5,509 nt of DNA, taken from Candidatus Heimdallarchaeota archaeon (GTDB lineage: Archaea > Asgardarchaeota > Heimdallarchaeia > Heimdallarchaeales > Heimdallarchaeaceae). The number at the start of each line of letters is the position of its first letter. Position 1 is the first letter of the stretch. The position numbers and the translations under genes are program-made. Below the pieces are notes generated by a model. The model was not told the DNA's origin. It worked only from the letters and a program-made list of their open reading frames with translations, and searched no databases. Where the stretch lies: the NCBI GenBank assembly GCA_030668875.1, contig DAOVER010000098.1, forward strand, positions 1-5,509, in the 5' to 3' direction. Of the stretch, positions 1,773 through 3,210 are shown in pieces.

Positions 1773-1802
1773 ATGATGTTTATTTGTCTTGTTGTCTTGT
1801 TA
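1773..1802 (+). repeat. Left terminal inverted repeat, with 8-bp-period TGTYT units
   Basis: ATGATGTTTATTTGTCTTGTTGTCTTGTTA matches the reverse complement of 3163-3192 at 27/30. TGTTT/TGTCT/TGTCT units start at 1777, 1785 and 1793. Confidence 0.85.
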
Positions 1803-1841
1803 AGTAGTAAATCTAGTAAAATTTTAGAAATAGTACGGGTG

Positions 1842-1849
1842 TTTTTATA
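1842..1849 (+). promoter_or_regulatory. Candidate archaeal TATA box for tnpB (leaderless transcript)
   Basis: TTTTTATA centred ~26-27 nt upstream of the tnpB ATG at 1872, the spacing expected if transcription starts at or near the ATG. No clear SD and no convincing BRE. Confidence 0.4.
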
Positions 1850-1871
1850 GTGAACTCTAGGTTAAAGAAGG

Positions 1872-3131
1872 ATGACAAAGGTACTGCGTGTAGAGCGTAT
1901 AGAAGTGGAGTATCATCCAGCATTAAGCAGAATCTGTCATCAAGCAAAAAATCTCTATAATCGAGCGAATTTTCTGATAAAAAACTCTTTGAAGCAAACA
2001 AGTAAACTTCTCTTTTACTATGATCTTGACAAACAATTGAAACAGGAGGAGTGTTACAAAATCCTTCCCGCTCATGTTGCTCAACAGACACTTAAACATC
2101 TAAGTAGGAACTGGAAAAGCTATTTCCGAGCTAAACGAGAGTGGAAGAAGGATCCTACATTGTTTTTTGCCATGCCTAAGCCACCTAACTACAAAAAGAA
2201 AGATGGGGAAGTAGTGGCCATCTTTACCAATCAACAGGCGAAGATAGTCAATGGGTGGCTAGTGCTACCTAAAAAAGTGAAGTACACCTACAAGACAAGA
2301 TTGACTGCTCAGACAGAGTTGAGGGAAGTGCGAATCCTCCCCCGAAGAACTCACTACACCCTTGAACTCGTTTACTTGAAGAGTATACCTAATCTCAGGA
2401 AAAAGCTAATCAGAAAAGGAGCAATAGATTTAGGGATGGACAACCTTGCCGCTTTCGTGGATAACCTCGGAGGTCAACCGATTGTTATAAAAGACGCAGG
2501 GAAAGGAATAAAGTCCATAACACAGTATTATCTGAAAGAACAGAAAAAATTACAACTACAGTATAGTCAGCAACAGAGAAAGCAATTGCAAAATAAGAAC
2601 AGACTCAAGTATGGTCCAGCTTACTACAGACTCAAAGAAAAGTGGAGAAAAAAGTTAAACGATGCTATCCACAAATTAACCAAGTATCTGGTTGACCTTT
2701 GGATTGAACGGGGGCTCCATGAAGTGGTGATAGGCTACAATGAGCTATGGAAACAAGGAATGCATTTCTGGAAAAAAACCACCCAGATGTTCGTCACCCT
2801 CCCCTTCCTGAAAATCATCGATATGCTGAAGTACAAAGGAGCAGAACAAGGGATAAAAGTGGAGACTATTCCTGAACAATACACCTCCAAGAGCAGTTTC
2901 CTGGATAATGAGTTCCCCAAAGAACGGAAAAGGTACAAGGGAAAAAGGATCCACCGAGGGTTGTTCCGTTCTGCTGCTGGTCACTTGATCAATGCTGATG
3001 TTAACGCTGCGTATAATATTCTGATAAAAAGCGATCCGAAAGCCTTGCCTAAACGCAAGGTGAACGGGGTAGGAGGATACGTGATGTATCCACTCAGAGT
3101 GAGTATAGAGTATCTTCGCCCTATATCATGA
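1872..3131 (+). CDS. tnpB: RNA-guided endonuclease TnpB (IS200/IS605/IS607 OrfB), rearranged-RuvC type without zinc finger, 419 aa
   Basis: N-terminal KNLYN.AN motif, P.PPNYKKK, RuvC-I GAID186LGMDNLA, RuvC-II region VVIG288YNELWKQ, PE335QYTSKSSFLD, GKRIHRGLF and RuvC-III INAD376VNAAYNI. The ORF is intact. Confidence 0.95.
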   Translation: MTKVLRVERIEVEYHPALSRICHQAKNLYNRANFLIKNSLKQTSKLLFYYDLDKQLKQEECYKILPAHVAQQTLKHLSRNWKSYFRAKREWKKDPTLFFAMPKPPNYKKKDGEVVAIFTNQQAKIVNGWLVLPKKVKYTYKTRLTAQTELREVRILPRRTHYTLELVYLKSIPNLRKKLIRKGAIDLGMDNLAAFVDNLGGQPIVIKDAGKGIKSITQYYLKEQKKLQLQYSQQQRKQLQNKNRLKYGPAYYRLKEKWRKKLNDAIHKLTKYLVDLWIERGLHEVVIGYNELWKQGMHFWKKTTQMFVTLPFLKIIDMLKYKGAEQGIKVETIPEQYTSKSSFLDNEFPKERKRYKGKRIHRGLFRSAAGHLINADVNAAYNILIKSDPKALPKRKVNGVGGYVMYPLRVSIEYLRPIS

Positions 3132-3210
3132 CCTCTAAGCACGACATGTACCTAGCTTTGTCTAATAAGACAAGAAGACAAATAGACATCATCAAATAAT
3201 TATTGTCTAA
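3040..3210 (+). ncRNA. Predicted TnpB omegaRNA (reRNA) scaffold overlapping the tnpB 3' end, plus a flank-derived guide
   Basis: Established for TnpB: the RNA derives from the ORF 3' end and right end, and the guide from the adjacent flank. Seen here: perfect stems CCTTGC/GCAAGG (3043-3060), GGATAC/GTATCC (3075-3091), ACTCA/TGAGT (3092-3104) and TTGTCT/AGACAA (3158-3173). The ends are estimates. Confidence 0.55.
3163..3192 (-). repeat. Right terminal inverted repeat, with 8-bp-period AGACA units
   Basis: TAATAAGACAAGAAGACAAATAGACATCAT; reverse complement ATGATGTCTATTTGTCTTCTTGTCTTATTA, 3 mismatches to the left copy. AGACA units start at 3168, 3176 and 3184. Confidence 0.85.

Follow-up and report, generated by a model that had tools for sequence, protein, structure and literature searches.

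We analysed a 5.5-kb contig (G000:C46; 5,509 nucleotides, hereafter the window, meaning this whole stretch of DNA) from a genome of the archaeal family Heimdallarchaeaceae, and found that it carries, at positions 1773–3192, an inserted element that retains only a tnpB gene, a guide RNA and two ends. On balance, and with modest confidence, we read this element as a non-autonomous insertion sequence descended from the IS607 lineage, which would depend on a serine recombinase supplied in trans and crossing over at AT, and would persist through homing of its TnpB nuclease with the target-adjacent motif (TAM) TTAT.

Ends, junctions and insertion site

The left terminal inverted repeat of the element (1773–1802, plus strand) matches the reverse complement of the right one (3163–3192, minus strand) at 27 of 30 positions, which makes this pair the top inverted 30-mer of the window; shuffled sequences (n=30) gave at most 20–23. 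Each end contains three short units at a spacing of exactly 8 bp, which read TGTTT, TGTCT and TGTCT on the left (starting at 1777, 1785 and 1793) and AGACA on the right (starting at 3168, 3176 and 3184), the repeat units lying at equal distances from both ends. The dinucleotide AT is found at 1773–1774 and again at 3191–3192, and GG occurs at neither junction. On the left, AT follows a flanking TT (1771–1772), giving a junction that reads TTAT, while the right end closes with ..CATCAT. The sole gene between the ends is tnpB (1872–3131).

The same boundaries were observed in other copies of the element. Some 20 right ends lose all similarity immediately beyond ..CATCAT, where unrelated sequence begins, and about 25 left ends open with AT(G/A)A directly after a flanking T. 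For the insertion in the window, both junctions are spanned without any difference by Logan contigs from four sediment runs. What the subfamilies have in common at their ends is the terminal ATGAT and a pair of inner units, TTGTC[A/T]T at positions 12–18 and 20–26 from each end; at left ends the outermost unit has degenerated. The initial annotation of this DNA, made from the window alone, had described a tnpB-only element without an encoded transposase, bounded by 27/30 inverted ends with AT and not GG at the junctions, and all of this was borne out; its description of three TGTYT units per end holds for the window, but only the two inner ones are conserved in the wider family.

In three congeneric species, with flanks 79–91% identical to those in the window, the orthologous site is unoccupied and has a single AT; it reads ..ATTATT-AT-CAAAT.. 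in two of them (G016 and G010) and ..CATCATC-AT-CAAAT.. in the third (G021). The empty site has one AT and the filled site is bordered by two, so that the insertion amounts to 1418 bp placed at AT (TT-AT-CA), and because the insertion is absent from the orthologous site in these three species, the element moved after those lineages split. No base beyond AT is repeated at the insertion. Throughout the approximately 25 left and 25 right junctions compared, the shared dinucleotide is always two bases long and always AT, a pattern that, in sequence, looks the same for a crossover at AT and for a 2-bp duplication.

The flanks of these junctions reveal a marked target preference. On the left, T is present at −1 in 25/25 junctions and at −2 in 22/25; on the right, A is present at +2 in 20/25, and position +1 is G in 10, A in 9, T in 5 and C in 1. 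The target is hence near-palindromic (T-Y-AT-R-A), with a general site TT-AT-(G/A)A, but its left side, which reads TTAT, is much the stricter. This strictness on the left (T at −1 in every junction, compared with the equivalent of C in 10/25 when the right-hand base is mirrored) fits a filter imposed by TnpB rather than by a recombinase. Every right end reads TCAT, one base from TTAT.

The element family is Heimdallarchaeaceae-wide and numbers hundreds of copies, most of them with open frames. In the window's own genome (G000), searches that included self-BLAST recovered some 33 copies and fragments, many of them lying where a contig ends, and contig breaks fall inside many copies, as expected if near-identical copies exist. 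Synonymous divergence (dS) between the G000 tnpB copies ranges from 0.56 to >2, with the closest pairs at about 0.56 and most pairs above 1.3. Both ends are conserved in every subfamily, including the left-end units, which have no role in the RNA described below. Short copies resembling miniature inverted-repeat elements, for which the initial annotation had advised a search, were also found: two ends-only derivatives, of about 72 bp (G000:C36:29953–30024) and about 370 bp (L131:3807–4138, in G001:C13), carry TT on their left like full copies.

One further copy (G000:C94:36818–38237) combines the left end of one subfamily, with TTGTCAT units and a start reading ATAATAAA, with a right end that is 95% identical to that of the window's subfamily. 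Its mixed ends suggest recombination between subfamilies.

The TnpB protein and its guide RNA

The tnpB gene (1872–3131, plus strand) is intact and encodes a protein of 419 residues with matches to the Pfam domains OrfB_IS605 and Cas12f1-like_TNB, and a score of 156 bits against the NCBIfam model guided_TnpB, whose cut-off is 100. In an alignment of its clade (A2), RuvC-I D186 (DLG) and RuvC-III D376 (NAD) are invariant, while the position of the canonical RuvC-II glutamate is occupied by an invariant glycine (G288, motif GYN), and a different glutamate, E335, which precedes the former place of the first zinc-finger cysteine by seven residues, shows at least 90% conservation. All four cysteines of the C4 zinc finger between RuvC-II and RuvC-III are gone: the window reads ..YTSKSSFLD.. 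and ..FRSAAGH.. where CxxC motifs are expected, and the clade consensus has at most one Cys in this region. Judged by these residues, the active site is of the shifted-glutamate (Ealt, D-hydrophobic-G) type, and a lineage with alternative glutamate and D-hydrophobic-G motif, which includes IS607-associated pro-Fanzors and Fanzor2s, has been described as separate from canonical TnpBs (PMC10711439).

An AlphaFold2 model built from a 60-sequence alignment (mean predicted local distance difference test score, pLDDT, 91.8) has the TnpB/Cas12f fold, with its best TM-scores to ISFba1 TnpB of the IS607 family (8iaz; top match) and to ISDra2 TnpB (8h1j). The ratio of nonsynonymous to synonymous divergence (dN/dS) between paralogous G000 copies is 0.06–0.10, and tnpB is under strong purifying selection. 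Upstream of the gene, a TATA-box-like sequence, TTTTTATA (1842–1849, plus strand), ends 22 nt before the tnpB start and may serve as an archaeal promoter.

From about 3027 to 3192, overlapping the 3′ end of tnpB and ending at the right end of the element, the DNA hardly varies, even at third codon positions, among subfamilies with only 60–80% protein identity, and this region forms the scaffold of the guide RNA (omegaRNA, or right-end RNA, reRNA; plus strand). Across 26 sequences, we drew six helices by hand, five nested and one possible pseudoknot. Of the nested helices, four lie at 3043–3048/3055–3060, 3075–3080/3086–3091, 3096–3099/3133–3136 and 3104–3108/3121–3125, and the fifth is a terminal hairpin (3158–3162/3169–3173) whose 3′ arm is the innermost right-end repeat unit.

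Pairing in these helices is retained in 93% of cells over the 26 sequences, compared with 28–48% when the 3′ partners are slid, and nine pairs change on both sides (41 cells), which was reached by 0–1 of 500 shuffles. The terminal hairpin covaries between subfamilies, as TTGTCT/AGACAA, TTGTCC/GGACAA, GTTGTC/GACAAC and GTAGTC/GACTAC. It is the sole hairpin at the element's termini, varying as a part of the RNA scaffold, and the left end has none. The possible pseudoknot, between GUGAU in the loop of the helix at 3075–3091 and the last five bases, AUCAU, received nil covariation support, all of its pairs being invariant or changed on one side, and Rfam yielded zero family matches in the window at E-values up to 1.

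The scaffold stops at the element boundary, like that of known TnpB systems. Given their geometry (PMC10690162, PMC10711439) and the unoccupied sites, the flank at 3193–3212 (plus strand) should supply the guide part of the transcript; after departure of the element, this flank would be preceded by TTAT and would form the predicted target. As far as sequence can show, the cargo of the element is a working TnpB system.

Search for the mobilising enzyme

A search of 24 genomes of the genus, the window's own included, yielded no transposase of the Y1 type (PF01797), as used by IS200/IS605 elements, and the boundaries of the element do not lie at TCAA 3195. We therefore rejected a Y1 reading, which the initial annotation had named as the outcome that would overturn its proposal, other copies instead sharing the exact boundaries given above. 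Different evidence came from the TnpB lineage itself. The Heimdall TnpB family forms one cluster at 50% identity, and its next relatives are 38–45% identical; a neighbouring transposase was seen for one in Methanohalobium (L112), for P0125 on three contigs (L141–143) and for 8 of 80 relatives on viral contigs, and in each case it is a serine TnpA of the IS607 type encoded immediately upstream. These enzymes are 186–195 aa long and combine a MerR-type helix-turn-helix (MerR-HTH) with a serine-catalytic Resolvase domain on the C-terminal side. Because the nearest transposase-linked relatives are all of the IS607 type, the Heimdall TnpB lineage is of IS607 descent.

Strand exchange at GG by a serine recombinase has been proposed and shown for IS607 (PMC4058570, PMC6188088, PMC10690162), and short direct repeats inside the ends are a hallmark of that family (PMC6188088). 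By the route that we favour, a serine recombinase acting in trans would pair the ends of the element and make a 2-nt staggered cut at both ATs, releasing a circle whose junction would be the near-perfect palindrome GACATC-AT-GATGT. The circle would then recombine with the AT of a new TTAT-like site, leaving AT on both sides without a true duplication, and, the core being palindromic, the recombinase could insert it in either orientation. Excision would leave a donor joint consisting of TTAT and the old right flank; a transcript running from the scaffold into the flank would guide TnpB to cut this joint, whereupon the element would be copied back from an occupied site during repair. Occupied sites would be spared by the element's own right end, TCAT, which is one base off TTAT, and in an IS607 IStron (CboIStron) target and self likewise differ by one base at −3 (TGGG vs TCGG, PMC10690162).

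Several observations weigh against this explanation. We found no serine tnpA between these ends or adjoining them in about 100 inspected copies, drawn from the window's own genome, a 20-contig relative (G001), G040–G045 and the family's genome, metagenome and viral loci. The only IS607-type tnpA of the genus belongs to another element, in which a MerR-HTH and Resolvase tnpA is followed by a 638-aa TnpB-like gene; its ends (ACCGTCGTCAAC.. and CAAGTTT repeats) are unrelated, and this tnpA was not found in four genomes (G012, G005, G006 and G003) that carry 2–9 copies of the family, which makes it an unlikely partner. Our element terminates in genuine inverted repeats, which published IS607 members lack, their ends being GG (PMC6188088), and a crossover at AT is without precedent among the IS607 members in the literature we consulted, where the dinucleotide is GG (PMC6188088). 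AT is moreover its own reverse complement, and therefore cannot alone set the orientation of strand exchange. In contigs from the same sediment runs, neither a precisely empty allele nor an excised or circular form was seen, although contigs cannot show rare forms, and the G000 copies, being old at the synonymous divergences given above, give no sign of ongoing movement.

The other IS607-type element of the genus has features of its own. It is found at G000:C48:36104–38849 and C15:30694–31483, and its TnpB-like gene has a weak TNB-domain match. The last 86 bp of its right end recur, at 94–99% identity, in more than 20 solo copies (for example C91:28140–28225), mostly preceded by ATGATCCTCATGAT, and these look like a miniature derivative or a free-standing guide-RNA module.

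A transposase encoded between the same ends, which the initial annotation had hoped to identify, was absent from every copy examined, and no longer autonomous form was found in G001, in G040–G045, in the genome, metagenome and viral contig collections or at an extra resolvase gene of G014. Self-BLAST of G000, whose completeness of 92% bears on this failure to find a transposase gene there, revealed no other repeat family with these ends. The genome gave zero matches to an IS630-type (DDE_3) gene. Two of its insertion sequences were set aside as sources: a rve-type element, which has unrelated TGTTAAC.. ends and 14–15-bp duplications, and a DDE_Tnp_1 element, which has unrelated TAAAGCATGTCCC.. 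ends.

The rve-type insertion sequence is about 1.0 kb long, occurs at G000:C22:9516–10521 and in about 13 other copies, has inverted ends starting TGTTAACTC.. and encodes a rve (integrase-core) transposase of about 310–350 aa, its target duplications being 14–15 bp. A separate repeat family in G000 (C9:3400–6000 and C95:77500–98800), with the motif TTATTGTCAGTTTCTTTCTTGTTGTCTTTTAGTATG every ~200 bp, adjoins a 485-aa open reading frame without a Pfam match.

The architecture of the element also invites a different explanation, in which it is a cut-and-paste non-autonomous transposon whose 30-bp ends are bound by an unlinked DDE transposase that cuts at AT with a 2-bp stagger, the AT being a true 2-bp duplication and tnpB and the guide RNA its cargo. 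Published TnpB homologues do reside inside transposons with terminal inverted repeats and target-site duplications, for example Fanzor1 and Fanzor2* in eukaryotes (PMC3627910, PMC10711439), and the symmetric ends, the near-palindromic target (T-T/Y-AT-R-A), the invariant flanking 2-bp repeat, the ends-only miniatures and the lack of a linked transposase would all agree with it. We nevertheless consider it unlikely, since zero DDE genes were found between such ends anywhere searched, G000 has no DDE_3 match and its rve and DDE_Tnp_1 elements have other ends, and the TnpB lineage is linked to serine transposases. To our knowledge, no prokaryotic DDE family duplicates AT. The initial annotation had offered both this possibility, as a cassette mobilised in trans by a transposase of this inverted-repeat type, and an IS607-like non-autonomous derivative with an AT core. 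The latter has gained support from the single-AT empty sites, the serine TnpA of the relatives and the shifted-glutamate TnpB, and the former has lost ground with the unrelated ends of the two DDE elements examined in G000, yet the mover was not found.

Within the serine mechanism, the mover could instead be host-encoded, as one of two chromosomal resolvase-type serine recombinases for which the joined ends would mimic a palindromic crossover site. The candidates are orthologues of G000:C18:25768–26484 and C29:40648–41397, paralogous proteins of about 240–250 aa that are 44% identical and have an N-terminal catalytic domain; no curated family matches either whole protein. They are present, mostly one each, in nearly all genomes of the genus and of the family's other searched genera, including two single-contig genomes, and Tn3/gamma-delta resolvase crosses over at the central AT within TTATAA and binds TGTC-containing half-sites. 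Their distribution, however, looks like that of ordinary host genes. They are also present where the TnpB family was not found (G004, G013, G017 and G014), and zero TGTC-type sites lie beside their genes, so that we judge this sub-case improbable. Less probable again is that the family is now immobile, its ends being relics of an extinct autonomous element and its copies persisting through TnpB-guided homing and vertical descent. The deep divergence of the G000 copies, the failure to find a transposase and the missing precisely unoccupied allele in the same sediment runs are consistent with immobility, but the insertion is missing at the orthologous site in three species, both ends are conserved in every subfamily, even in left units that the RNA does not use, and contig breaks fall inside copies as near-identical copies would cause.

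Genomic setting and comparison with known systems

The genome G000 is 3.2 Mb in size with 34% G+C, public records of its relatives carry the labels Candidatus Heimdallarchaeota or Heimdallarchaeaceae, and the sequencing runs listed as containing the window are marine-sediment metagenomes, with no RNA run among them. In the window, the element lies between a decayed small gene on the minus strand, with its start at 1768, and the 3′ end of a major facilitator superfamily (MFS) transporter gene (3242–4657, minus strand). The decayed gene (1390–1768, about 130 aa) is a pseudogene in the window, with a start codon changed from ATG to AAG (1766–1768), an in-frame TAA (1525–1527) and an early stop near its end, and its orthologue in G016 is intact. 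Because the element is positioned 4 nt upstream of this start codon, its insertion probably severed the gene from its promoter. A second strain, present in all four sediment runs, is about 99% identical to the window over 3208–5509 and has 18 other bases in place of 1326–3207; it therefore has neither the decayed gene nor the element, and this replacement is not a precise excision.

The element resembles the IS607 family (IS607, IS1535, ISC1926; CboIStron; ISXfa1, ISFba1) in that its TnpB lineage is tied to serine TnpA, that its two junctions share one dinucleotide, which is single in the unoccupied site and comes without any variable duplication, and that short direct repeats lie inside the ends. 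As in that family, the guide-RNA scaffold reaches the right end, and the target motif includes the dinucleotide, with the element's own right end differing at −3. Unlike that family, it has AT in place of GG, a 27/30 inverted repeat at the very termini, which IS607 does not have (PMC6188088), no serine tnpA of its own and a TnpB without the four zinc-finger cysteines; the direct repeats of IS607 ends lie at unequal distances, whereas the 8-bp repeats of the element are equidistant from both ends. The element thus works like a non-autonomous IS607, but departs from the family in two defining features, an own serine tnpA and ends without terminal inverted repeats.

With IS1341-type IS200/IS605 elements and palindrome-associated transposable elements (PATEs), for example those of haloarchaea, it shares tnpB as the sole gene, a guide RNA overlapping the 3′ end of that gene, many diverged copies per genome with few close pairs, and terminal-only miniatures (PMC3119063). 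IS1341-type elements differ in having subterminal hairpins and neither inverted termini nor a shared dinucleotide, insert 3′ of a 4–5-nt motif and need Y1 TnpA, and the element has none of the defining features of IS200/IS605. Its joined ends, with their AT core and TGTC half-site, would bear a likeness, and only a likeness, to Tn3/gamma-delta res. More generally, they would form an inverted repeat around a central 2-bp overlap, which is how the sites where small serine recombinases cross over, such as resolvase site I and invertase sites, are generally built (PMC4058570).

By its residues and predicted RNA, the cargo is of the TnpB (OMEGA) kind: the RuvC fold has a D-E-D triad, and a structured RNA shares sequence with the gene's 3′ end and extends to the element boundary. 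It departs from a typical TnpB in having lost the C4 zinc finger that normally lies between RuvC-II and RuvC-III. Prokaryotic elements that carry tnpB alone are stated, as are IS200/IS605 and IS607, to have neither terminal inverted repeats nor flanking repeats (PMC3627910, PMC6188088). The family described here breaks both of these published rules. Its copies number in the hundreds, its hosts are the archaea most closely related to eukaryotes, and the searches for its transposase found none. It provides a clean series of occupied and empty sites, a TAM predicted to span four bases (TTAT vs its own TCAT) and a compact, zinc-finger-free TnpB of 419 aa with a scaffold of about 165 nt, all directly testable. 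The identity of the mover would answer how tnpB-only elements spread without a cognate TnpA, and would show whether a serine recombinase can transpose via a palindromic AT core.

The Fanzor1 and Fanzor2* elements of eukaryotes and their viruses (PMC3627910, PMC10711439) are likewise non-autonomous, with a nuclease as the sole gene, inverted ends of about 30 bp, a 2-bp flanking repeat, end sequences built into the guide-RNA scaffold and a shifted RuvC glutamate. The likeness is one of architecture, and the element differs from Fanzors in its archaeal host, in a RuvC-I motif that reads DLG and not DPG, in a repeat that is AT and not TA and in having no known DDE partner. It is possible, though we find it doubtful, that in Heimdallarchaeaceae the TnpB/guide-RNA module parted from its transposase long ago and is mobilised by an enzyme that resembles no IS607 TnpA, either a chromosomal resolvase-type serine recombinase working on a palindromic repeat-AT-repeat junction or an undescribed transposase acting on terminal inverted repeats. 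If so, the element would be a prokaryotic (Asgard) counterpart of the Fanzor arrangement, in which a shifted-glutamate nuclease is carried alone between inverted ends that are bordered by a 2-bp repeat.

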